Of a DNA stretch of 64,000 nt, positions 1 through 12,661 are shown one piece after another. Each line of letters begins with the position of its first letter. Positions within the stretch are counted from its first letter, which is position 1. A model generated the notes under the pieces. The model had not been told where the DNA came from and ran no database searches. It saw only the letters and a list, made by a program, of their open reading frames with translations. The stretch covers positions 3,008,001 through 3,072,000 of the forward strand of contig OY970166.1 of assembly GCA_963706595.1 (NCBI GenBank), given 5' to 3'. This DNA is from an uncultured cyanobacterium (GTDB lineage: Bacteria; Cyanobacteriota; Cyanobacteriia; Cyanobacteriales; Nostocaceae). Position numbers and translations under genes: made by a program.

Positions 1-18
1 AGGGGGCAGGAATCAGGG

Positions 19-1176
19 TTAAAAAATATCGGCTGGGTCGGCTGAGTTTAATTTTCGCATGGCGATCGCACCGGAAATTAAACACATGATAATTGTTAAA
101 ATTAGAACTAAAATTATTCTGTCAGGTGTCATAAATAGTGGTAACTTGGTGACATTGCGGGTAAAAGCATACATCACAAAGGAAACAAAGCCACCAGGAA
201 TAAAACCGCAAATAGCTAATATTAAAGCCTCTTGAAATACAACCAATAATAAATAAGTATTACGATAACCCATGGCCTTAAGTGTGGCATATTCCGGCAA
301 GTGATCCATGACATCACTGTAAATAATTTGATAAACAATAATTACACCCACTAAAAAGCCGATGGTGACACCCAAGGAAAAGATAAAACCAATCGCGCCG
401 TTTTCTTGCCAATATTTCTTTTCAAAATCAATAAATTCTTGACGGGTAAAAACTTGCACATCATCATTCAAGTAAGATTGTAATGCTTTGGCGACTAAAT
501 CAGCATCACTACCCGGCTTGAGATTAATTAAACCTAAATTAACTTGACCTGGTTGTTGTCCTGAAAAAATCCGCAAATAGTTTTGATCACTTGTGATCAC
601 ACTACCATTAGCAACAAAAGAAGCGCCAACTTCGTATAAACCGCCAATTTTTACTTTACGTCCTTGCAGTTCTGTGGTAATAGATTTACCCTGAGAAATT
701 TGGGCGATCGCCTGTTCATATTTCCCACTAGAATTGCGGTCAAATAACAGCGTATTGGGATATTTAATCTGATCTAATTTTTGATTAACTGCTGGTAAAT
801 TGAACGCAGGTTTTTCAGGATTAAAGCCAATTACCAAAATAGATTCATCCAACTTCGTTTGGGGACTTTTCCAAACACCCAAGCGGACATATAAAGGATT
901 AACAGACTCAACCTCAGACAAATTAGCAGCTTGAAACAACCGCCGACGCGGAAAACTACTGAGAAGCCCCAAATTTTGGGCTTGACGACTCACTAACACC
1001 ACATCAGCTTGTAAAAGTTCATGAAAGCGAGTATTACTATCATATAAAGCCGACTGAAAGCCCAACTGCATTAACATCAAAAAATCAGCAAAAGTGATTC
1101 CACAAAGAGCAACTAAAAACCGCCCTTTTTGCTTCATTAATTGCCGCCAAGCCAAAGGAATTTTACGCTTAAACAT
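19..1176 (-). CDS. devC: DevC-family ABC exporter permease
   Basis: 385 aa; N-term IPLAWRQL..KGRFLVALCGITFA..LMQLGF, FtsX-like C-term YATLKAMGY and ending DPADIF typical of cyanobacterial DevC paralogs. Confidence 0.88.
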   Translation of the reverse strand: MFKRKIPLAWRQLMKQKGRFLVALCGITFADFLMLMQLGFQSALYDSNTRFHELLQADVVLVSRQAQNLGLLSSFPRRRLFQAANLSEVESVNPLYVRLGVWKSPQTKLDESILVIGFNPEKPAFNLPAVNQKLDQIKYPNTLLFDRNSSGKYEQAIAQISQGKSITTELQGRKVKIGGLYEVGASFVANGSVITSDQNYLRIFSGQQPGQVNLGLINLKPGSDADLVAKALQSYLNDDVQVFTRQEFIDFEKKYWQENGAIGFIFSLGVTIGFLVGVIIVYQIIYSDVMDHLPEYATLKAMGYRNTYLLLVVFQEALILAICGFIPGGFVSFVMYAFTRNVTKLPLFMTPDRIILVLILTIIMCLISGAIAMRKLNSADPADIF

Positions 1177-1225
1177 AAGGATAATAACTAATGACCAATG
1201 ATTTACCCTGAGCGTAGCCGAAGGG

Positions 1226-2440
1226 CTAAGGACTAATGACTATTTCAACATTCACCTGAAGATTAGTAAAATTAGCCACTTGCTGACTAGAAGCTTCATC
1301 TAAACGAATTTTGGCTTCAATTACTCTCGCATCTGTAGCTGCGGTGGGGTCACTATCTAACACATCTTTCTTCGCCACTTTTAAACCAATACTATCCACT
1401 CTTCCGCTTAATTCACCTGTAAAAGCATTACTAGGACTGGTAATATTAGCAGTTTGACCAGGGCGAATCTTGCCAATATCACTTTCATAAATTTCCGCGA
1501 TCGCATACATTTGATCAGTTTCCCCCAGTTCCACAATTCCCTCCTCACCGATGGTTTCACCGGGACGAGCTTGAACCCGCAGAATTTGACCTGCTTGGGG
1601 AGCGCGAATGTATGCAACATCCAGTTCAACTTGCATTTTTTCCACAGTGGCGATCGCACTATCCACTTCTGCTTGTGCTATAGCTACATCTGTGGGACGC
1701 ACCTCCGATGTTTGCTGTAAGGTGGCTTTGGCTTCTTGAATTTGGGCGGTGAGAGTGCGTTGAGTTCTGCCTAAACTGGCTTTAGCACCATTTAATTCCG
1801 CTTGGGCGGTGCTGACGGTTAATCTGCGAGTATCTAAAGCTGAAGCCGCGATCGCACCTTCCTTGTAAAGACTTTCATAGCGGCGAAATTCCATCTCTGC
1901 ATTTTGTAACTCAGCTTCCAGACGAGCATTTGTAGCTTGCTGGGTTGGGATTTCTCCCTCTAACTGTGCTTGCAGATTTCTGACAGTGGCTTCTCTCGCG
2001 GAGATTTCACCTTGTTTTGCACCGGCTTTCACCTGATTAAGACGTGAAATTGCTACTTGGACTTGTTGCTGTGCTTCCTTGAGATTAGCTTGTAGGCGAT
2101 CGCGATTATCCAAAATAGCAATCACCTCACCCGCGCTCACTTGCTTACCTTCCTCAACCAACAATTGAGCCACACGACTACCACCACTAGGATCAGTAGG
2201 AGCCGAAATTCTAATTACCTCACCGGCTGGTGACAATCGTCCCAGCGCATTCACCTTTGGAATTACTGGCGGACTAACCTGAGTTGACACCACTGGAGTT
2301 GTTTGATTAGTTGTGGGACGGGTTACATAGACTACACCCGCCCCCATGGCCATCACAGAAGTAATACCTAAAGCGACTAACCAACGCAAATTGGGCGCAA
2401 ACAAAGACGACTTTCTAATTTCTTCAGAATTTCGTAACAT
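1226..2440 (-). CDS. devB: DevB-family membrane fusion protein (HlyD-like) of ABC exporter
   Basis: 404 aa; N-term TM, VNALGRLSP.GEVI, long coiled coil, YIRAPQAGQIL, DARVIE.KIRLD; directly upstream of devC. Confidence 0.88.
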   Translation of the reverse strand: MLRNSEEIRKSSLFAPNLRWLVALGITSVMAMGAGVVYVTRPTTNQTTPVVSTQVSPPVIPKVNALGRLSPAGEVIRISAPTDPSGGSRVAQLLVEEGKQVSAGEVIAILDNRDRLQANLKEAQQQVQVAISRLNQVKAGAKQGEISAREATVRNLQAQLEGEIPTQQATNARLEAELQNAEMEFRRYESLYKEGAIAASALDTRRLTVSTAQAELNGAKASLGRTQRTLTAQIQEAKATLQQTSEVRPTDVAIAQAEVDSAIATVEKMQVELDVAYIRAPQAGQILRVQARPGETIGEEGIVELGETDQMYAIAEIYESDIGKIRPGQTANITSPSNAFTGELSGRVDSIGLKVAKKDVLDSDPTAATDARVIEAKIRLDEASSQQVANFTNLQVNVEIVISP

Positions 2441-2471
2441 TCAATAGTTCCTTAAATAGCAGGTTAAAATA

Positions 2472-3916
2472 TTAAATTCCAGTCCCCCTCCTCGCTTGCG
2501 GGGAGGGGCTAGGGGTGGGGTTCCTATTCGCCCCTGTTTCTGCGAGTTCTTCATACTTAAAGAAACCAGGATTTAGAATTCCACAAGGGTCATATTTCCG
2601 TTTCATATTATTGACAGTAGACCAGTAATTTCCGAATTGCGATCGCCATCTTGGCAAATCAAAATCTGCCCAAGTCGCCATATATCTTTTACCACCCATT
2701 TTCAAACCCAAATCAGTCAGTAAATTTAACTGTTCTAGCACAGGTTCAACCTGAGATTTAGGAATAGTCGGATACATTCCCAAACCGATAATTAAATCAT
2801 CATCAGGTAAAGGAAACATAGGCATTTTATGCTTACCAGAATTGAGACAAAAAGAACCCACAGGAACAGTGCGGAAATCAACAAACCCTGGTAAACGCTG
2901 GAGAGCAATATCAATAAATTCTTTTGCTCTAGACCCTGGTAACAGTACATCTATCCAAGCATTAGCAGTATTGACAGGATGAGGAAGTTGTCCTAAAGGT
3001 TGAATGAACTGCTCAAAAGTCAAATCTTCTGTATGAATATGACGATAAAAATTTAAACCAGCAAGCAATTCTGCATCATTTATCTCATTTACAGAATCAA
3101 CTTCCACAGTAACTTGCATCCTATAAAACCATTGAATTAACGGTTTCATCTGATTTTCTTTCCTACTTATGCCTTGTAAGCAGGGTGAAAATAAAGATAC
3201 TAAACCATCTATCCGACCTTCTGAAACCAGACGACGTGCATCAGATAAAAGCTGATCTAAATCGTCATAGCAAAGAAAATAACTGCGAGTGTAAGGGCGA
3301 TATTTTCTCAAGCGATTTTTGACTTTAGTAATAATACCAAACTGACCATAACCACAAAGAACGTGATTAAAAAGTTCGCTATTTTCTTCTGGCGTACACC
3401 AAACAATATCACCACTCCCAGTAACAACTTCTAAACCCAAACAATTATCAGCTTGAGAACCGTAACGAAAAGAACTTAAACCCAACCCAGCCGCAGAGAG
3501 AGTTCCCCCAAAGTCACTTCAAAGTTATTAGTCAGAACAGGCGGAATTACACCATGAGGTATAGCAGCATCAACGATTTGCTTCCAAGTCACACCAGGAT
3601 CAGCTTGAAACCAAAGTTCATTAGGACGAAATTCATCAATTTGATTAAGACTCCTCATATCTAAAAGAATGCCATCTTGATTCAAAGATTGACCACTTAA
3701 AGAATGTCCCGCAGCCCGTGAAGAAATTGTTAAACCTTGTTTAGCAGCATATTTAATTGCTGCTGCAATATCACTGGAATTTTGGGGACGAATCACAACT
3801 TGAGGTTGTCTTTTAACAATATTCCCAAAATCCTGAGAAACTGCTTCTAACTCTGATTCCTTATTACTAATTTCCCCAGAAACAATCTGTTTTAAATCGG
3901 TTATAATCTTGTTCAT
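2472..3916 (-). pseudogene. FAD-binding oxidoreductase (FAD_binding_4 / cytokinin dehydrogenase-like, TolJ-like), split by a single 1-bp frameshift
   Basis: ORF 3476-3916 has RAAGHSLSGQS (His-FAD motif); ORF 2472-3485 has GYGQFGIIT and KYDPCGILNPG. One extra G in the minus-strand G5 run (C run 3505-3509) restores EVTLGGTLSAAGLGLSSFRYG. May be a sequencing error rather than a true pseudogene. Confidence 0.8.
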
Positions 3917-4085
3917 TTTTTTTATTGTAATTAAGATTTTAATCTAACCACAGAGACGCAGAGTACACAGAGGAATAAAGAACGAGCATCTCAATGATAA
4001 AACCCTCTTATACCCTCTTCCCTTGGCGTTCTTTGCGTCTTGGCGGTATGCGCTGCGCGCACGCTACGCGAACGTTTCTCCAAAA

Positions 4086-4736
4086 TTAATTAAAAACCCG
4101 CATTTTCAGCATCTTAAAACCAACCTTAAACAAACTAGGAATCAATCCCATAAAAGAAAAAACACGAGATATCACCTGAAAAAGATTATTTTGAGTATCT
4201 ATCTTAGCCCCCAGCAAATTATCTGCATTCCTTTCATACTTAAATACACAAACACAATCACCCTCAGCTTGTTTACTCAAAATAGCCGCCTTTATTCCCG
4301 GAAAAGCCCTTCTAGTAGCTTCTTGTTCCATCTCACAAAATACACGACAAGGACTATCAAAACCGTATTCTTTAGCGATAGATAAAACAGGACAAACCCG
4401 TTGAATTTCTAATGCTGCATCTGTGCCATGTTGAGAAACATCTACCACATCCATCACAAAGCCCATCAAACCCAATAACGGTGCAGCTTGGGTGAAACCT
4501 TTGGCTAAAGTATTATGATCGATGAAAGTACCCATCAACGCCTTTTGTTGTTCAGGATATTTTTCCATCATCTGTTCAAAAGCAGCAGCTTCTCCTTTTT
4601 CTGCAACCAGATTTTTGTATTTTTGAAATCTCTTCCTAAACAAATTCACGGCTTTAGATTCATCTAGATTGATGATATCTTCCATGCGGAGATTCCCTGT
4701 AAACAGTTCTTTTTCTATGCTCATTTTTTTGTCCAT
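4086..4736 (-). CDS. L-2-amino-thiazoline-4-carboxylate hydrolase-family (ATC hydrolase/V4R-like) protein, TolI-like
   Basis: 216 aa; Cys pattern RVCPVL..AKEYG...PCRVFCEME....AEGDCVCVFKY characteristic of the ATC-hydrolase family. Confidence 0.7.
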   Translation of the reverse strand: MDKKMSIEKELFTGNLRMEDIINLDESKAVNLFRKRFQKYKNLVAEKGEAAAFEQMMEKYPEQQKALMGTFIDHNTLAKGFTQAAPLLGLMGFVMDVVDVSQHGTDAALEIQRVCPVLSIAKEYGFDSPCRVFCEMEQEATRRAFPGIKAAILSKQAEGDCVCVFKYERNADNLLGAKIDTQNNLFQVISRVFSFMGLIPSLFKVGFKMLKMRVFN

Positions 4737-4839
4737 ACTATTAAGATGGAATAACGAACCGCCAAGCCGCCAAGAACGCCAAGTTAGAGAGGGAATATTG
4801 ATTAGTTACAAGTTGATAAGGATTGGTGTAAATAGTGTT

Positions 4840-5079
4840 TTAGATACTTGAGTAGATGCAAAGGCAAATTATCCAAGCTAGTACATATTTACAAGCATTA
4901 AGAAAGGATAATGCAATGTCTATTTCTAGTTCGCTGGTAATATATGTATTGTGTGTTGTTTTATTCAAAGTGATATTTTTTGACATTACCTGTAGTGGCT
5001 GTTTGTGGGTTTGGGTGCGAGTGTTGAATAAGGTTTTAGCTATTGATTGTCTGATGTTGACGGATTTGGGTTTTCTCAT
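4840..5079 (-). CDS. small hypothetical protein with C-terminal hydrophobic helix
   Basis: ATG at 5079 preceded by AAAGG; co-oriented inside the operon; C-term FLNACKYVLAWIICLCIYSSI is hydrophobic. Confidence 0.4.
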   Translation of the reverse strand: MRKPKSVNIRQSIAKTLFNTRTQTHKQPLQVMSKNITLNKTTHNTYITSELEIDIALSFLNACKYVLAWIICLCIYSSI

Positions 5080-5127
5080 TGCAGCATCGCCTTTATTAAA
5101 GTGTCTATCAGTTGCAATCAAAAAATT

Positions 5128-6132
5128 TTATAGCCACTTACGAGGATTTCTTAAAACTTCTTTCAACATGGCTTCTTTACTACCAGCAATAGGTTGATCA
5201 TCGTATTCCCAGTTAGCAGCAGGAGGCATACAATTAAACACACTTTGCTGCTTCACCATACCACTGGCTAAACCAAAACGAATGCCGCGATCGCACGATA
5301 AAATAAACTCCACATATCGCCCACGCACTAAATGTTGCCAATACTTATTTGCTTCTGTAAAAGACATATTTTTACGTCTTTCCAAAATAGGCATATAAGC
5401 AGGGAGAAAAGCATTAGCACAATTAGTCACTAATGACAGCAGCTTTTCGGGATTTTCGTGATTTAAATTGTCAAAGAAAATACCACCTACACCTCGATGT
5501 TCGCCACGATGTGGGATGTGGAAATATTCATCACAGGCATTTTTAAAGCGGGGGTAATAAGCAGAACCATACTGATCACAAACATCTTTATGCACCTGAT
5601 GAAAATGAACTGCATCTTCCTCAAAAAGATATGCTGGTGTTAAATCAGCGCCACCTCCGAACCACCAATACACAGGTTGGTTAGCATTACGAATCTCGAA
5701 ATAGCGATAGTTAACATGAGCCGTGGGAGCCATCGGGTTATGAGGATGGATAACAAAGCTAGAACCTGTAGCGAAAAAGCGGTTCCCTTTGCTAGTAGTC
5801 ATTTTATCGGCTGCATTTGTAGCGAGAGCGCCTGATTTCTCAAAGGACATTCCCGGAGGTAGCTCACCTTCTATGGCTACATAATTAACTCCGACCTTTT
5901 CCAACACATTACCATTGTGCAGAACCCGGTCAATATATATAGCGTCTTCACTACTTTCACCAACCGTCCAGAGTCCCTTGCGATCGCGATTCCAGGACTG
6001 TTCAGAGAACTTTTTACCATCTAAAGCTTCCAGCGCTTGGCAAGTATTATCAAACATTTGTCTGAAAAACTTGTCGATTACCCCACGCATGATTGGTTGT
6101 TGAATCAATGATTTTTCGAGGACATGGTTCAT
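5128..6132 (-). CDS. hemF: oxygen-dependent coproporphyrinogen III oxidase paralog (HemF2-like, divergent)
   Basis: 334 aa; EKVGVN, HPHNPMAPTAHVNYRYF, WWFGGGADLTP, RGVGGIFFD, RGRYVEF...DRG..FGL; several C-terminal motif substitutions. Confidence 0.88.
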   Translation of the reverse strand: MNHVLEKSLIQQPIMRGVIDKFFRQMFDNTCQALEALDGKKFSEQSWNRDRKGLWTVGESSEDAIYIDRVLHNGNVLEKVGVNYVAIEGELPPGMSFEKSGALATNAADKMTTSKGNRFFATGSSFVIHPHNPMAPTAHVNYRYFEIRNANQPVYWWFGGGADLTPAYLFEEDAVHFHQVHKDVCDQYGSAYYPRFKNACDEYFHIPHRGEHRGVGGIFFDNLNHENPEKLLSLVTNCANAFLPAYMPILERRKNMSFTEANKYWQHLVRGRYVEFILSCDRGIRFGLASGMVKQQSVFNCMPPAANWEYDDQPIAGSKEAMLKEVLRNPRKWL

Positions 6133-6280
6133 GATGATCTCCCCACTATTGATGAAGTACGTCTATATTTACCAAAAATCATGAATGCTACAAAACTGAT
6201 TCAAAACCGTAAGCCAGCACCCAAAACAAATTCGTTTGATCTGTGGTTCCTGATCTCTTTCCTTTCTTCACCCCAAAGCA

Positions 6281-7315
6281 TTACTTCACATCAACAATTT
6301 GTTGCTGTTTATCCTGACTATATGCAGAAAATTCAGCCTGAGACTTTTGCAGAAACTGACGAAAAGTAATATCTAAAGCATCAGCCGCAACATGAAGTTC
6401 CTCTGATATTTGCGGCATTGATTGAGAGTTTAAAGTGGAAACTACTATTGTGTCTTCTTGGGCTAGTTTGTGGTCAATTTTTCTAAAGAAACCATCTAAC
6501 CAAGGGAAGGGTAAAACATTGCGATATAACACGCGTTTGACACGAGTCCTATTTTGATCAATCGGTAGGTGAGCAACTAAAATGCCAAACTTAATATCAA
6601 ATCTACTACCACGACCGACACTAATTTCTGCCAGAGTAACATTAGGCAAATATAAAGTCAATTTGGTTTTCAATTCTGGTCGTCCACCGAGTAAAAAGTT
6701 CAAGAAACTTTTCGAGTTACCTAAAGATTCATAATTAACTTTAGCAACTGCACCCCAATCATATTTATCAACTTGATATTTAATAGTTGTATCGATGGGG
6801 ATTCTCTGACCAAACGATTTTTTATGGACTGCAATCACATGGGTAAAATCAAGATTAGCTTCCATGAGACGAGCATAGTTAGCATTATCTATACTGTCAT
6901 CATACACAGGACGCATAGTCGAGACCATGTATTCGGGAAAAGTTGGTAGAGGAGGATGTTCGGCTTCTGGTAAGTCCCCATAAAACAGCCAGACAAAACC
7001 ATATTTTTCTTGAACTGGGTAGTTATCAACAAGAGCTTTTTTAGGAATAGCAACTTCAGTCCCATTAGAAGGAATTTCAACACATTGCCCATCAGCTTGA
7101 AACTTCCATCCATGATAAGGACAACGAAGACAATCTTTTTCAATCCAACCCAGAGACAAAGCAGCACCACGATGGGGACATTGATCATTCAAAGCTACTA
7201 TTTGTTTTTGAGAATTGCGATAAAGCACAAATCTCTGATTAAACATCAAAACTTGCTTGGGCTGATTAGTAACTGCCGAGCTAAATTCACAAGCATACCA
7301 AAAATTTTTCAACAT
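6281..7315 (-). CDS. Rieske non-heme iron oxygenase alpha subunit (VanA/PaO/CAO-like), copy 2
   Basis: Rieske motif CPHRGAALS..CPYHGW; mononuclear Fe motif NLDFTHVIAVH; distal QED. Confidence 0.9.
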   Translation of the reverse strand: MLKNFWYACEFSSAVTNQPKQVLMFNQRFVLYRNSQKQIVALNDQCPHRGAALSLGWIEKDCLRCPYHGWKFQADGQCVEIPSNGTEVAIPKKALVDNYPVQEKYGFVWLFYGDLPEAEHPPLPTFPEYMVSTMRPVYDDSIDNANYARLMEANLDFTHVIAVHKKSFGQRIPIDTTIKYQVDKYDWGAVAKVNYESLGNSKSFLNFLLGGRPELKTKLTLYLPNVTLAEISVGRGSRFDIKFGILVAHLPIDQNRTRVKRVLYRNVLPFPWLDGFFRKIDHKLAQEDTIVVSTLNSQSMPQISEELHVAADALDITFRQFLQKSQAEFSAYSQDKQQQIVDVK

Positions 7316-7370
7316 ATTTGTCTCCTATCCTTTTTAGATATCTTGACCTCAAAGCCGAAAAAAATCTCAT

Positions 7371-8438
7371 CTAATTCATCAATGAAGTGTAAATAGACTG
7401 TGATTGATGGTAATGAGAATTATCTAATTCATATTGCTCAGAATTTAAACCCCATCCCATAGTTAAATATTTTTGGCGAAGCTGACGATAAGCCAGAGTC
7501 AAAGCATCAGCAGGAACATGAACTTCAGTTAATAAATTATCAGGAATTAACTGGGGAGTTTGTGACTCAGTTACTACCTTATCTTCTAAACCAACTTTAT
7601 GATGAAAATTGATAAATAATCTGTCTGCCCAAGAATAGGTAAAGAAATTACGCAGTTGAATGCGTTTACTAATGGTTGTGTTCTCATCAACAGGAACATG
7701 AATAGCATAGTTGATAATTTTGCCCCGACCAAAGTCACTTTCAATTTTAGTTATGTTTGGTAAATAAAAGGTAGTTGTGGCATTTAGTTGTGTTTGTTTG
7801 GGACGAAAAAAAGATTTAAAAATGCCATTTTTGGGCTGAGTGTAATTCTTGTAGATAATTTTCGTACTTATGCCCCAAGCTTCATCTTTAACTACATAGT
7901 CTGCTACTTTTGGATCTTGTGCAAATCCTGCACCAAAAGAATTAGCATGGACTGCATAAAGATGGGCAGGATCAAGGGCATTTTCTATGACACGAGTGTA
8001 ATTAGTTTGCATTCCATATTCTATATAAATAGGATGCATTTTCGGGTCTTCGTATTCTGGAAATGGAGGAATTGGTGGCCGTTCTGATTCTGGCAATTCT
8101 CCATAAAATAGCCAGATAAAACCATATTTCTCTTGTACAGGATAACTATTTACATTAGCTCTTTTCGGAATGGGTATACCAACTTCATTAGAAGGAATTT
8201 GCACACATTTTCCATCAGCTTGAAATTTCCATCCATGATAAGGACAACGAATACAGTTGTCTTCTAGCCAGCCCATAGATAATGCTGCACCGCGATGAGA
8301 ACACTGGTCTTTCAATGCAACTACTTGACCTTGAGAATTGCGATAGAGGACAAACTTCTGATTTAACATCGCAATTTGCTTCGGCTTCTTAGTAATAGCT
8401 GAACTAAATTCACAAGCGTACCAGAAGTTTTTTAGCAT
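7371..8438 (-). CDS. Rieske non-heme iron oxygenase alpha subunit (VanA/PaO/CAO-like), copy 1
   Basis: CSHRGAALS..CPYHGW; NALDPAHLYAVH; LED; N-terminal half very similar to the downstream paralog. Confidence 0.9.
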   Translation of the reverse strand: MLKNFWYACEFSSAITKKPKQIAMLNQKFVLYRNSQGQVVALKDQCSHRGAALSMGWLEDNCIRCPYHGWKFQADGKCVQIPSNEVGIPIPKRANVNSYPVQEKYGFIWLFYGELPESERPPIPPFPEYEDPKMHPIYIEYGMQTNYTRVIENALDPAHLYAVHANSFGAGFAQDPKVADYVVKDEAWGISTKIIYKNYTQPKNGIFKSFFRPKQTQLNATTTFYLPNITKIESDFGRGKIINYAIHVPVDENTTISKRIQLRNFFTYSWADRLFINFHHKVGLEDKVVTESQTPQLIPDNLLTEVHVPADALTLAYRQLRQKYLTMGWGLNSEQYELDNSHYHQSQSIYTSLMN

Positions 8439-8779
8439 CCCTAATTTCCTAAGCTTTTAACGAAAGTTCTTATTTATACTAAAATGCGGTCGAAAAGACG
8501 GAGTTTCTGAGGCTGTGGCAAAATCTAACTGATCTTTTGGCTTGTAGTGAGTGCTTTAACGCCCAAAAAATTTTTCCCCGTATTTTTTGTACTTTTTTGA
8601 ACAACAATCATTTGGTTTTGTTTTTGATGAAAATATTTATTCCAGGATAAATGAGCCAAATTTAGAGAAATTTAGCTGCTGTTGGGATTTTGATATGTGT
8701 TTTCGCAATTTGACACTTTCTGGCTTCTCTTGCCTTTGTTTTGTGTCACCCTTTGGATAGAGTTACTTCTCTTTCCGGG

Positions 8780-8869
8780 GGTATAGGTGATACTATACCA
8801 ATGCACTGGTGCATTAGTCAACCAATGAATAATTTTACCTGATGAACCATTACACCAATAAACTAGTGA
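8780..8869. promoter_or_regulatory. putative operator between Rieske operon and RHH regulator
   Basis: IR GGTATAG-N6-CTATACC (8780-8799), IR AATGCAC-TG-GTGCATT (8800-8815) and 8-bp-period repeats ACCAATGC/ACTGGTGC/ATTAGTCA/ACCAATGA (8797-8828) and ACCATTAC/ACCAATAA/ACTAGTGA (8846-8869). Confidence 0.5.
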
Positions 8870-8882
8870 ATAAGTTTATTCG

Positions 8883-9104
8883 TTGGAGTATAGTGTGGCA
8901 CAAGGAGAAGCTTCGATTCGGGTTTACTTACCCCCTGACATCAAAGACAGGTTTAAAACAATTTGCTTTTTTAAGGGATTGAATATGTCTGACGTTTCGG
9001 CTGAACTTATTGAAGACTGGTTAGCTAAAAATGACATGGAACTGCCAAATTCTCAGAAAACCGCATCTGCGCCCGCTATTAAAAAGGGTGATATGTCAGC
9101 ATGA
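8883..9104 (+). CDS. ribbon-helix-helix (ParG/CopG-like) DNA-binding protein
   Basis: 73 aa; SIRVYLPPDIKDRFKTIC...LNMSDVSAELIEDWL fits the RHH pattern; divergent from the Rieske operon; start may be GTG 8895. Confidence 0.72.
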   Translation: MEYSVAQGEASIRVYLPPDIKDRFKTICFFKGLNMSDVSAELIEDWLAKNDMELPNSQKTASAPAIKKGDMSA

Positions 9105-9366
9105 TTCAAGGAAGTTGATTAAATAACCTGCGCCTTTAATTCTGCTGGTGTTTGGGCTGTGTAGTTTTACTGGTGTTGGAGGTCATCAAAGCCAATCTAT
9201 ATCTATGCTAGAAATTTCTGAGATTTTTTGACTCATTTTGTAGCTAATGGGGTGACAACTATGGTTGAAAACCCTATCTAGCCACTGTTTAAGTCACAGT
9301 TATGCAAAAAAGTCCGGTCAGTTTTTTGTAACTCAACCGAACTTATAAAAAATTCCAGCGTTTGGG

Positions 9367-9472
9367 TATAGCGGTTATCAGTTAATTGAGATACAAGAAC
9401 CCCACCCCCAACCCCCTCCCCGCAAGCGAGGAGGGGGCTATGATGTACTTCATTCAAGTGCATACCGCTATA
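9367..9472. mobile_element. MITE-like repeat element
   Basis: TIR TATAGCGGT/ACCGCTATA enclosing CCCCACCCCCAACCCCCTCCCCGCAAGCGAGGAGGGGG; related inverted copy at 55908-56014. Confidence 0.6.
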
Positions 9473-9569
9473 TTAAGTATTGGGTATCAAGTATTATTGA
9501 CACTCCCTAGTCCCCAGTCTCTGGTACAGGTAGGCGTTTGCAATCATTCAAAAGCCTAGAAAATAAGCT

Positions 9570-9598
9570 TTTTGACTTTTGACTTTTGACTTTTGACT
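9570..9598. repeat. heptamer tandem repeat (TTTTGAC)n
   Basis: four TTTTGAC units; also two units near 37257-37275. Confidence 0.75.
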
Positions 9599-9610
9599 TC
9601 CGCCTTGCGG

Positions 9611-11211
9611 CTAGCTATATCCATCCCAGGCTAGAGGAAAGGTGTAATCTGAGAACAAGGGAAAATCTGGGTTTTCCTTACGGGTTTCTTCGTCGAGGAC
9701 TTTTACTACTTTGTGATAAATGTCTTCTGCTTGTTGTGGGGAATCGCCAATGCTGGTTAATCCCAATTTGCCAAACTGGGAAAGACAACCCATGAGATGA
9801 AAAACTGTGCCTGTTTCTGTACAGCTATCAAAGTGCAGTCGGTGATGGGCGATAATATCCATTAAATCGTTGGGTAATAATCCCCGATAGCGGTCTTTTT
9901 GCAGGTTGTCGGTGGCTATATAGTATTTGGGTCGTCCTTGCTGACTGTAAAATAACCCGGTGGAAAGGTCGTAGCGTCCATTTGTTAACAATTTCAGGGT
10001 CATGAACGGATGCGTAGTTCCACCTTTACGCAAGTTAATTTCAATGGCTTGAATGTCCCACTGGCCGTTTCCTTGGTCTACGGTGATAAAGTCTACGCCA
10101 AATCTTTCAACTGCACCTTTTTCTGAGAGTTTTCTGCCGATTTGTAAACCGCATTGCTGTAATTGCAGCCGATAGCGGGAATCAGCCGGAAATCTACAAC
10201 CCAGATAAATTTGTCCGTCTGGTCCGCCGAGTATTTGGTCATGGGTGGAGACAATTTCGACTTCACCTGTGGGTGTGATGCGTCCTTGGACACTAGGCGA
10301 TCGCTTGATTTCTCCTTCGACAAATGCTTCGGCGATCGCACCTAACTCTGTAACCGGTTAGCAAAATTTCCCCAAGTCTCGTGTGTGGATTGAAAGCGCA
10401 TGGTGGGGAAGCGATCGCTAATTGCTGCTACTGTTTGGCTATGAGACACTTTCCCCGGTGCTAAATCCATAATTGGTCTCAAATCTAGCAGTGCATTTCC
10501 TTCTCCAGAAATGCCTTCATTGAGTTTGACAACTATTCTTTGTAATGTCGGTTGGCGTTCCCATAATTTACCCGCAACTTCTGCCAAATCTTGCTGATTA
10601 CAGACTTTTTCGCTGCCATCTGGTAGAGGAACTCCACTTTGGGCAAAGATTTGGCGACTACCGCTTTTTGTCCCCCAAATCTGTAAATTTGGTGCAACAG
10701 CATACAATGGCACATTTAATTCTAGAGATAATTCGGCTTCTAAAAATGTGGAATTGTAGCAAGTCATAAATGATTTTTCTAGTCTCAAGGCTTGGCGAAT
10801 TCGCTCTAGTAGCCGAGGACGTTCTAAAATCTTAGCCGTTAGGGGTCTAAGGGAAGAATCATAAGTGGACAGTAGCAGCAAGCGATTACGCGCATGGGAA
10901 AAGGGAATTCCCGGTAAAAGTTGCAAATAGTAATCAATCACACTCGGATGTAAAGGCATTGATGTGACGTAAATCAACCGAGTCCGGGGGTTTCGCAAGC
11001 GCATTAAAGAGAATAATAGTCTTTCTTCATAATGCTCACAACCTTCGATTTTATGCAGTTCATGCTGGTCGATGCTGAGGGAGGGAATAATTAAAATATC
11101 CGCCTCACCATAGTCAAATAGCTCAATGGTCGGCCAGCGATCGCATAAAGTTAACTGAAGATGGCGAAACTTTTCAACTTTGTCTAATTCTGAAATATTC
11201 AGCATCTCCAT
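9611..11211 (-). pseudogene. PGM1-related ATP-grasp peptide ligase family protein, split by a single 1-bp frameshift
   Basis: ORF 10342-11211 (HYEERLLFSL, WGTKSGSR, VKLNEGISGEGNA); after a shift near 10354 the frame reads ELGAIAEAFVEGEIKRSPSVQGRI...EINLRKGGTTHPF continuously to the stop at 9611. Confidence 0.78.
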
Positions 11212-11719
11212 AATCCCTTCTCTGTATTGATCCCCAATACTGCCTTCTTACTCTGGTATATACCAAAGCCAGTCAGATACAGCTAATATGCAACACTTCT
11301 TTGACTGCTGTTAACCTATGTTGAGTGAAGAACTAAAAATACACAAAAGCACAAACAGCTATTTTGCTCAGATATTGCCTGTATTGTTAAAACCGGAGAA
11401 ACAACTATAGCTATCTCCATTCAGTTGTGAGAAAGCACTTAGATTTGACTCCACAACTAAAAGTCAAATTTTATTCAGCCCTGCCCATTAAAAATCACTG
11501 TGGATGGCTATCTTTGTCATATTTGACGATATTTAGCACTGATTTAAATGCAACATAGATTTTACCAATTATTTGTAAATAAACCAACATAAATAAATTA
11601 TATGTATAGAGATGTTGCGTACCCCGTTTTGCTTGAGTTAGTTGGTCAATTCCCTCCTAAAATAAAAAACATTATCTAAAAAGTTTATTACTGTACTTAT
11701 TGCTAATATCGGGAGGGGA

Positions 11720-12661
11720 ATGATGGTCCGTCCAATAATTTTGGGAATTGTCGGTGATAGCGCCGCAGGCAAAACAACACTGACTAGGGGAATTGCTCAG
11801 GTACTAGGTCCAGAAAATGTTACCCTCATCTGTACTGATGATTATCACAGTTATGATCGTCAGCAACGTGCAGAAATGGGTATCACAGCCCTTCATCCTG
11901 ATTGTAATCATTTAGATATCATGCAGCAGCATTTATCGCTGCTACGCACAGGACAACCGATTCTCAAACCGGTTTACAGTCATTCAACTGGGAAATTTGA
12001 GGCTCCACAATACATTAAGCCCAATAAATTTGTGATCATTGAAGGCTTACTCGGTTATTCTACCCGTGCAGCCCGTGAGGCTTACGACGTAAAAGTTTAT
12101 CTTGCACCTCCCGAAGAACTCCGCGCTGAGTGGAAAGTGAAGCGGGATACTCAAAAACGAGGCTATACTGCTGAACAGGTATTGGCAGAACTAGAAAAGC
12201 GTGAACCAGACTCAGCAAATTATATTCGTCCTCAGCGTCAATGGTCGGATATAGTGGTGAGTTTTTATCCCGCCAATGAAGAAGACGAGGATAATAATGG
12301 ACATTTAAACGTGCGGTTGGTACTGCGACCAACAATCCCTCATCCTGATTTTACTTCAATTTTGAACTTAACTAACGGTAATTCTGAGTCAGCGATTCGC
12401 CTGGGATTAGATAGGGATATGAGTAAACCTGTGGATGTGTTGGAAGTTGATGGTCATGCGACTTTGGAACAGGTGAATAAGTTAGAGCATATTTTATGTT
12501 CAGATATGCCTTACTTATTAAATGTGTGCGATCGCGAGAGTAATCCAGAATTGGGTAAAATTGCGGGAACAACTGGAGAGACATTGCAAAGTTATCCTTT
12601 AGCGCTGACGCAGTTGATTATTACCTACCACATGCTCAAAGCAACGCAAATGTATCAGTGA
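11720..12661 (+). CDS. phosphoribulokinase/uridine kinase family protein (PRK paralog)
   Basis: Walker A GDSAAGKTT, ICTDDYH, IIEGLL, WKVKRD..KRG; lacks the Cys of the canonical cyanobacterial PRK motif GDSGCGKS. Confidence 0.82.
   Translation: MMVRPIILGIVGDSAAGKTTLTRGIAQVLGPENVTLICTDDYHSYDRQQRAEMGITALHPDCNHLDIMQQHLSLLRTGQPILKPVYSHSTGKFEAPQYIKPNKFVIIEGLLGYSTRAAREAYDVKVYLAPPEELRAEWKVKRDTQKRGYTAEQVLAELEKREPDSANYIRPQRQWSDIVVSFYPANEEDEDNNGHLNVRLVLRPTIPHPDFTSILNLTNGNSESAIRLGLDRDMSKPVDVLEVDGHATLEQVNKLEHILCSDMPYLLNVCDRESNPELGKIAGTTGETLQSYPLALTQLIITYHMLKATQMYQ

Follow-up and report, generated by a model that had tools for sequence, protein, structure and literature searches.

A compact gene cluster with a tolyporphin-type core and tandem Rieske oxygenases in the Nostocaceae

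The closest described relatives of the gene cluster discussed here are the tolyporphin clusters of cyanobacterium HT-58-2, which a 2023 review names as the sole known tolyporphin producer, with clusters in eight strains; what the hcaE genes do, and which physiological function is served, are points that the review leaves open. In the known route, according to two reviews, HemF2 converts protoporphyrinogen IX to a tetravinyl compound; its vinyl groups are then released as acetaldehyde by TolI, which is an Fe-S protein with an amphipathic tail, and a hydroxy-oxochlorin is produced by the P450 TolH. The reviews assign no reaction to TolJ, and the HemF2 and TolI steps are demonstrated there for the HT-58-2 and Oculatella orthologues (PMC10548856, PMC10459692). 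Tolyporphins Q and J are described as hydroxy-bearing members. Jin et al. 2021 state that hem genes are grouped in every one of their clusters, each of which also contains tolB and tolD, and they report a duplicate hcaE pair, its relevance given as unknown, for HT-58-2 BGC-2, Oculatella LEGE 06141 and Nostoc FACHB-892 (PMC8401325). The cluster described here occupies one end of a 64,000-nucleotide stretch (the window) of an uncultured member of the Nostocaceae (contig OY970166.1, positions 3,008,001 to 3,072,000, assembly GCA_963706595.1), whose genome, G000, is 94% complete. Eight genes share the minus strand, coding for two Rieske oxygenases, HemF2, a small membrane protein, TolI, TolJ and the transporter components DevB and DevC, and a 73-amino-acid (aa) ParG-like ribbon-helix-helix (RHH) gene points the other way (Table 1).

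Judged by orthology of its predicted proteins, this cluster shares the tolyporphin core but falls outside the published cluster definition: among the features used by Jin et al. 2021, TolJ and a DevB and DevC at the cluster end are present, and clustered hemABCEF1, TolD and a TolG/TolH P450 are absent. A minimal tolyporphin-type pathway is proposed because the orthology of HemF2, TolI and TolJ, the published enzymology and the complementary distribution of oxygenases point the same way.

The tolyporphin-type core and its spread

HT-58-2 carries BGC-1 (L055 in our locus set, in agreement with the published tolI coordinates) and BGC-2 (L048). The window HemF is 57% identical to BGC-1 HemF2, 71% to BGC-2 HemF2 and 40% to HemF1, and a housekeeping hemF elsewhere in G000 codes for a protein that is 41% identical to the window HemF and 80% to HemF1. 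In a tree of 82 HemF proteins, many of them close kin, the window copy lies inside the HemF2 clade (support 100), and it carries the HemF2 residue at 26 of 26 clade-diagnostic columns, in keeping with the HemF paralog proposed in an earlier note made from the letters of the window. The 216-aa protein that the note placed in the ATC-hydrolase family and likened to TolI is 60% identical to BGC-1 TolI and 61% to BGC-2 TolI, and its closest named homologues, from Nodularia and Anabaena sp. CCY 0017, reach 92-96%. The likeness to TolI holds, but the family label does not reach its threshold (an ATC_hydrolase Pfam score of 23.4 bits against a curated cut-off of 28.1), so the TolI identity rests on direct comparison. 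In the TolI tree the window protein groups with 70 hemF2-linked proteins (support 100), separate from 10 sister proteins; C115, C130, C134 and C163 are invariant among 34 sequences, and the C terminus forms a hydrophobic/amphipathic tail helix. A predicted TolI model lies near H-NOX, V4R, DmpR/PoxR sensor and TRAPP folds at middling VIA-align Z values of 6-9, with no Foldseek match to the model at an E value of 0.001 and no sequence relative in the PDB.

The FAD oxidase of the earlier note proves to be TolJ, at 55-60% identity to the BGC-1 TolJ and 67-74% to the BGC-2 TolJ. It carries a GH flavin motif, and the best solved relatives of an intact orthologue (in locus L007) are cytokinin dehydrogenases (E 1e-47). 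TolJ occurs in both P450-type and Rieske-type clusters and therefore likely serves a dehydrogenation step common to the two forms. Purifying selection, measured as dN/dS, is seen on all cluster genes.

The distribution of the cluster was examined in a TolI-alignment scan of species genomes, using the best 80 of 112 relatives ranked by likeness to the window. These comprise 68 loci of cyanobacterial type and 12 distant ones, with flanks of up to 10 kb (several incomplete) and a bias toward kin of the window. The 12 distant loci have no hemF2, tolJ or Rieske gene within view. Among the 68, hemF2 is present in 67, tolJ in 65, at least one Rieske gene in 60 and two in 43, and P450 genes, TolD and hemA are found in 14, seven and 35, respectively. 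The order Rieske1-Rieske2-hemF2-tolI-tolJ recurs in 24 of the 68 loci, each with an RHH gene, which is more than chance. This is the compact form, meaning an RHH regulator, two Rieske genes, hemF2, the small membrane gene, tolI, tolJ and devBC, without P450, glycosyltransferase or hem genes. The 24 compact loci group together as a single clade in four trees (HemF2, TolI, Rieske 2 and DevC), and L009 alone falls outside it in the Rieske 1 tree. The cluster is real, conserved and under selection.

Searches of same-genus and same-family genomes, not ranked by likeness to the window, agree with these counts. A tolI gene is present in 10 of 11 same-genus genomes, with the full gene order in five of five same-genus stretches (L087-L091), and in 71 of 360 same-family genomes spanning 23 of 67 genera (one match is a fragment and one a sister protein). 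Rieske genes of this type (E 1e-90 or better) occur in 68 of the 360, namely in 63 of the 71 tolI genomes and only five of the 289 without tolI; the genomes are kin and not independent, and no statistic is attached to this co-occurrence. In one genome (G402) the whole block is missing and the end of devC remains beside the flanking ligase gene. A phylum sample gave tolI matches in six of 401 genomes, two of them weak and spurious, and with so few matches it says little beyond this family. The earlier note had named three sequence-level findings that would count against it, namely a 216-aa protein unlike TolI, a HemF that is the sole genomic copy and groups with housekeeping HemF, and genes that do not co-occur elsewhere; what was found is the opposite in each case.

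Other forms of the locus also occur. A Nostoc form (L092-L095; L056, L058-L069 and L073) has one Rieske gene, hemA/E/C/B/F1, devBCA, a SOUL heme-binding gene and hemL, together with an upstream RHH gene and a gene weakly resembling heme oxygenase. This form has neither P450 nor glycosyltransferase genes, and the copy in L073 is plasmid borne. L031/L119 is a core-only cluster of hemE, C, B, F1, hemF2, tolI and hemA, without tolJ, Rieske or P450 genes, and could make tolyporphin P alone. In a distant cyanobacterium, two tandem tolI copies lie behind hemF2 (L070:7482-8781). The TolI sister family (about 45-55% identity, shorter and tail-less) lacks hemF2 (L074-L086 except L078; L101:9708-10268; L102:9790-10335) and is also present in Chlorobiaceae and Thermodesulfobacteriota; in L101 its gene is directly behind nickel-hydrogenase genes. 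It may represent the ancestral function of the fold.

By analogy with the characterised orthologues, housekeeping enzymes would supply protoporphyrinogen IX, HemF2 would decarboxylate its last two propionates to give a tetravinyl porphyrinogen, and membrane-anchored TolI would cleave the four vinyl groups as acetaldehyde to give tolyporphyrinogen P. We place the probability that the core runs to this compound at about 0.9. That the core enzymes have drifted to another substrate, or that the cluster is decaying here with tolJ a true pseudogene, is very improbable: although the enzymes are no more than about 57-60% identical to the characterised ones, a TolI-like sister family sits beside hydrogenase genes without hemF2, and tolJ is frameshifted, TolI and HemF2 both lie inside tol-linked clades.

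The tolJ break itself is likely an assembly error. The gene is divided into 3476-3916 and 2472-3485 by one base missing from a G run at 3505-3509, with five G residues here and one base more in nine of nine other loci retrieved (13 tried), and it is a single full-length open reading frame (ORF) in 24 of 24 other compact loci. Both halves have a low dN/dS (0.10-0.31), and other genes of the assembly are split by similar single-base losses (3 of 16 L007 proteins of at least 150 aa are split in G000), which together led us to set aside a true pseudogene as the likely reading. Among the split genes are a PGM1-related ATP-grasp ligase (window 9611-11211; 533 aa in relatives) and an MFS gene left of the window, a sign of assembly indel errors; the tolJ and MFS breaks are both at G runs. 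Reads of this strain were not found among public sequencing runs, none of which held half of the stretch's words (best share, 0.39). Contigs of relatives spanning the tolJ site have one gap each in X1 and X19, whose position within the contig is not given, and the indel table from public-run contigs does not list the site.

The Rieske pair and the predicted product

Rieske 1 and Rieske 2 are 50% identical to each other and correspond one to one, as orthologues, to the two hcaE copies of BGC-2 (62% and 69%). In a quick tree they fall into two old, separate paralogue clades, and they differ in active-site motifs. C46, H48, C65, H68, H159, H164 and D286/D288 are invariant in 103 of 103 sequences, the bridging D156 is present in both window proteins, and the CxH...CxxH and 2-His-1-carboxylate sites are complete. 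The best PDB sequence matches of Rieske 1 are SxtDIOX (also named GxtA; E 1e-34) and SxtT (E 1e-32); the best NCBIfam match of the Rieskes, methyl monooxygenase NF052579, is far below its cut-off. The ESM Atlas returned generic Rieske clusters for Rieske 1, and a single-sequence fold of this protein was discarded at a pLDDT of 30. The longer Rieske proteins of G000 (445-465 aa) are on distant branches of the Rieske tree. The earlier note presented the tandem Rieske link as new; the pair is already in print for BGC-2, Oculatella LEGE 06141 and FACHB-892, and the link is thus established at the level of gene content but not of function.

If the core delivers tolyporphyrinogen P, the two Rieskes would oxygenate the freed beta-pyrrole positions, the task of TolH in the known route, with a housekeeping ferredoxin as electron donor. 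TolJ would then dehydrogenate the macrocycle or a secondary alcohol. DevBC, working with an ATPase encoded elsewhere, would export the end product, which is predicted to carry no sugar and to be a hydroxy-oxochlorin or dihydroxy-dioxobacteriochlorin of the kind represented by tolyporphin Q or J. For Rieske oxygenation of the freed beta positions to such a sugar-free product, predicted from gene content, the probability is about 0.5. The distribution of oxygenases supports this, with Rieske genes only in 50 of the 68 loci, both types in 10, P450 only in four and neither in four (three of these short or incomplete and one core-only). Three Rieske-less tolI stretches (L097, L116 and L117, which may overlap the 68) have P450 and TolD genes, and in two TolD-bearing loci, L035 (Nostoc FACHB-892) and L047, Rieskes are present and the contig lacks any TolH-like P450 at E 1e-60 or better, which supports Rieske substitution for the P450. 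The suggestion in the earlier note that Rieskes act instead of P450s therefore fits the Rieske-only majority and not the 10 loci with both.

P450 and glycosyltransferase genes, absent from the part of the sequence seen in the earlier note, are also absent from window positions 14000-64000 (26 of 27 listed ORFs of at least 180 aa scanned), and no TolG/TolH P450 is found among window ORFs of at least 180 aa or by tblastn in the 30 kb to the left. With two TolD queries (TolA and TolB were not queried), G000 has no match at E 1e-8, and the best TolD matches in nine of nine other compact-cluster genomes are weak (22-36%, E no better than 1e-16); control searches gave 100% and 66% matches. A non-glycosylated product, as the note had suggested, would be consistent with this gene content.

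Several observations weigh against such a Rieske-made product. Both oxygenase types are present in 10 of the 68 loci, including BGC-2 (in two of the 10 the P450s are fragments at the far edge), suggesting that the Rieskes may do another job, and the closest solved relatives of the Rieskes are C-H monooxygenases on other substrates. A sister Rieske pair, 47-56% identical to the BGC-2 pair, occurs without hemF2, tolI or any other tetrapyrrole gene nearby in eight of eight fetched stretches (L108-L115); family membership alone therefore does not give the substrate, and on these comparisons the subfamily is not tied to tetrapyrroles. Unlinked P450s in G000, 40-49% identical to TolH/TolG, could act in trans, the cluster contains no reductase gene and no devA, and tolJ is frameshifted in this assembly. 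Three assays, tuned to dioxobacteriochlorins, detected no tolyporphin in three tol-cluster strains, of which one carries the hcaE pair. In the sister stretches, seven of the pairs flank a membrane protein (210-240 aa, no Pfam match) and one lacks it; an MFS transporter is sometimes nearby.

The coexistence of both oxygenases suits an alternative in which the same core feeds Rieskes that, singly or as a two-subunit enzyme and with TolJ finishing, oxidise ring methyls to hydroxymethyl, formyl or carboxyl groups, giving a product outside the 18 known tolyporphins. Chlorophyllide a oxygenase, for comparison, oxidises a methyl to a formyl group. The age and differing active-site motifs of the two Rieske clades, the methyl monooxygenase and C-H hydroxylase matches, and the lack of signal from hcaE-bearing Oculatella in tolyporphin-tuned assays all agree with it. 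We regard it as doubtful: a P450 is found in nearly all clusters without Rieskes and is missing from most clusters with them, and TolD together with Rieskes in L035 and L047 fits a Rieske-made oxo-ring precursor.

It is improbable that tolyporphin P is the only product, with TolJ aromatising, or that a P450 completes the pathway in trans, the Rieskes acting on another substrate. The sister Rieske pairs, the core-only L031/L119 and the unlinked P450s agree with this; TolH matches in five genomes lie at the 37-47% background, and a P450 may still act in trans. However, the Rieskes stay beside the hemF2-tolI core through differing gene orders and rearrangements in 60 of 68 loci, are the first genes behind a conserved promoter, and are missing along with the rest of the block in G402.

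The hem genes bear on another unlikely alternative, in which the cluster disposes of surplus protoporphyrinogen, stripping it, opening the ring with Rieskes in the manner of pheophorbide a oxygenase (PaO) and exporting a nonphototoxic linear product. G000 has single dispersed copies of hemA, L, B, C and E and none within the cluster, so that the compact form lacks hem genes to raise supply; the low expression of the matching Nodularia spumigena genes in the table described below, and the weak heme-oxygenase-like and SOUL genes of the Nostoc form, would also agree with disposal. Neither Rieske has a PaO domain (PF08417, at E 0.01), and PaO membership was rejected; a hem set of hemA, B, C, E and F1 is found in other clusters of the Rieske type, hemA being present in 35 of 68 loci, which marks biosynthesis rather than disposal.

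Returning to a Rieske-tailored, sugar-free pigment, the P450-free, RHH-repressed branch may be the commonest form of the pathway, making an exported tetrapyrrole outside the known tolyporphins; we offer this tentatively. If true, about one in six species of the family carry the branch, among them bloom-forming Nodularia, Anabaenopsis and Umezakia, and tolyporphins are a decorated exception within a widespread, overlooked pigment class. With the core in 71 of 360 family genomes, mostly in the Rieske form, its reach extends far beyond the eight listed strains. The compact cluster is short and expressible whole, so Rieske action on the porphyrinogen, TolJ action and the purpose of the pigment are directly testable. 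Export of a photoactive porphyrinoid by bloom-forming species, if it occurs, would be relevant to their chemical ecology.

Regulator, transporter genes and surroundings

The divergent RHH gene, already proposed as a regulator in the earlier note, has orthologues at 73-91% identity in 24 of 24 compact loci, and Nostoc-type clusters have a distant RHH gene upstream. The RHH protein probably represses the cluster. A promoter-like element lies about 350 bases upstream of Rieske 1 and is the best of 20 promoter-like sites in positions 1-9600. That total is no better than chance (25.8 expected), so the support for this promoter is its conservation, in 17 of 24 compact loci and seven of seven further stretches. 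The palindrome within its spacer is the single exact site in G000, and six or seven of the seven pairs are kept in 22 of 24 other loci with the element and four of seven in two. The RHH protein would bind this candidate operator and keep expression low. Folding of the 350-base leader does not exceed that of shuffled sequences (z -0.22), and an NtcA-type site (GTA-N8-TAC) is absent upstream in the window and present in two of 24 other compact loci. The pathway might be switched on through the candidate repressor and operator, and repression may explain the apparent silence of cluster-bearing strains.

In an RNA-seq expression table for N. spumigena CCY9414 (PMC9846622), NSP_RS06535-06570 match the cluster by product name and order, not by sequence. 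The enzymes have tabulated values of 1-7e-4, compared with 4-9e-3 for the divergent small gene, hemF2 is about 13-fold below housekeeping hemF (an average of table rows), and none of the matching genes is flagged under phosphate limitation. These low values fit a repressed cluster without demonstrating repression. The operon column of that table gives four units for these genes; the co-oriented operon proposed earlier is thus supported as eight minus-strand genes at their coordinates and less so as a single transcript. Contigs of relatives in two RNA runs cover cluster genes, although such contigs cannot demonstrate transcription. The 12 of 17 supplementary files searched for PMC5853447 hold no match, and no start sites of the cluster are given in the supplements of PMC3610870.

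For the small ORF the ATG at 5079 is the most likely start, giving 79 aa with an E-x-D...Y motif followed by a hydrophobic C-terminal helix. Of 66 loci examined, 54 have it between hemF2 and tolI, with BGC-2 among them; D54 and Y65 are invariant in 40 aligned sequences, and dN/dS is 0.19-0.69. No Pfam, NCBIfam or ESM Atlas match was found, and the published tolyporphin gene lists consulted do not include it. The family models bear out the earlier devB and devC calls. The window DevC groups with the DevC of three other tolI loci and not with that of BGC-2 (47%). Directly after devC, devA is present in 11 of 22 compact loci with complete flanks, and G000 has at least six devA-like genes outside the cluster.

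The earlier note suggested reading left of the window for devA and further tol or hem genes; in 30 kb there are none, and a HigA-like gene adjoins devC on its far side, with a likely HigB partner, followed by unrelated genes. Roughly the last 38 bases of devC occur twice, on either side of a short hairpin-like repeat (window 19-60 and just to the left), an arrangement that resembles the scar of a small insertion where the cluster ends. Short dispersed repeats lie between and inside cluster genes (2475-2523, 3940-4091 and 9361-9475); they have many copies in one same-genus genome, and one extends the TolJ C terminus. The GC content of the cluster (0.37-0.41) is slightly below the window norm (mostly 0.40-0.45). 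Rfam gave no match across positions 1-12000, and a terminator scan gave sites at chance level only.

Table 1. Predicted features of the compact cluster (window coordinates)
Position	Strand	Feature	Basis
19..1176	-	DevC ABC permease, last cluster gene	TIGR01185 above cut-off
1226..2440	-	DevB-family membrane fusion protein	TIGR02971 above cut-off
2472..3916	-	TolJ, cytokinin-dehydrogenase-like flavoprotein, split by frameshift at 3505-3509	55-60% to BGC-1 TolJ, 67-74% to BGC-2 TolJ
4086..4736	-	TolI, 216 aa, orthologue of the Fe-S vinyl-cleaving hydrolase, amphipathic tail	Direct comparison, clade support 100
4840..5079	-	Small conserved membrane protein, 79 aa	Conserved between hemF2 and tolI
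5128..6132	-	HemF2, non-canonical coproporphyrinogen-oxidase paralogue, 334 aa	Identity, tree, diagnostic residues
6281..7315	-	Rieske oxygenase 2, 344 aa, orthologue of second hcaE of BGC-2	Pfam, 69% to L048
7371..8438	-	Rieske oxygenase 1 of 355 aa with Rieske and VanA_C domains, orthologue of first hcaE of BGC-2	Pfam, 62% to L048
8792..8821	-	Predicted sigma-70 promoter TTGACT-18-TATAGT, extended -10	Conservation across loci
8800..8815	.	7+7 palindrome AATGCAC-NN-GTGCATT within promoter spacer, candidate operator	Conservation of pairs
8883..9104	+	Ribbon-helix-helix (ParG-like) regulator, 73 aa, divergent	Pfam ParG E 4e-4, just under cut-off

Comparison with described systems

The earlier note spoke of a new tetrapyrrole cluster. 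The novelty lies in the compact form, free of P450s and sugars, and in how widely it occurs; the association with Rieske genes was already known. The literature covered, which takes in few subscription journals, holds no paper on the compact form, on Rieske function in the pathway or on a Nodularia cluster, and Jin et al. 2021 make no mention of Nodularia or Anabaenopsis (PMC8401325).

Among solved proteins, SxtT and SxtDIOX are the best relatives of the window Rieskes by full-length alignment and have the same domain pair; they are distant, act on other substrates and are uninformative on regiochemistry. PaO and chlorophyllide a oxygenase are likewise Rieske enzymes that act on tetrapyrroles; no PaO domain is detected in the window Rieskes.

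Among tolyporphin clusters, the BGC-1 type resembles the window in HemF2 (57%), TolI (60%, with its cysteines and amphipathic tail kept) and TolJ (55-60%), but has two P450s, no Rieske, C-glycosylation and its own hem genes. The BGC-2 type shares hemF2, tolI, tolJ, the hcaE pair, the small membrane gene and devB/devC with the window. In contrast to BGC-2, the window cluster is without a P450, TolD, the TolC acyltransferase, sugar genes and hem genes, and has its Rieskes first, upstream of hemF2, its own RHH regulator and candidate operator, and a DevC of another lineage.

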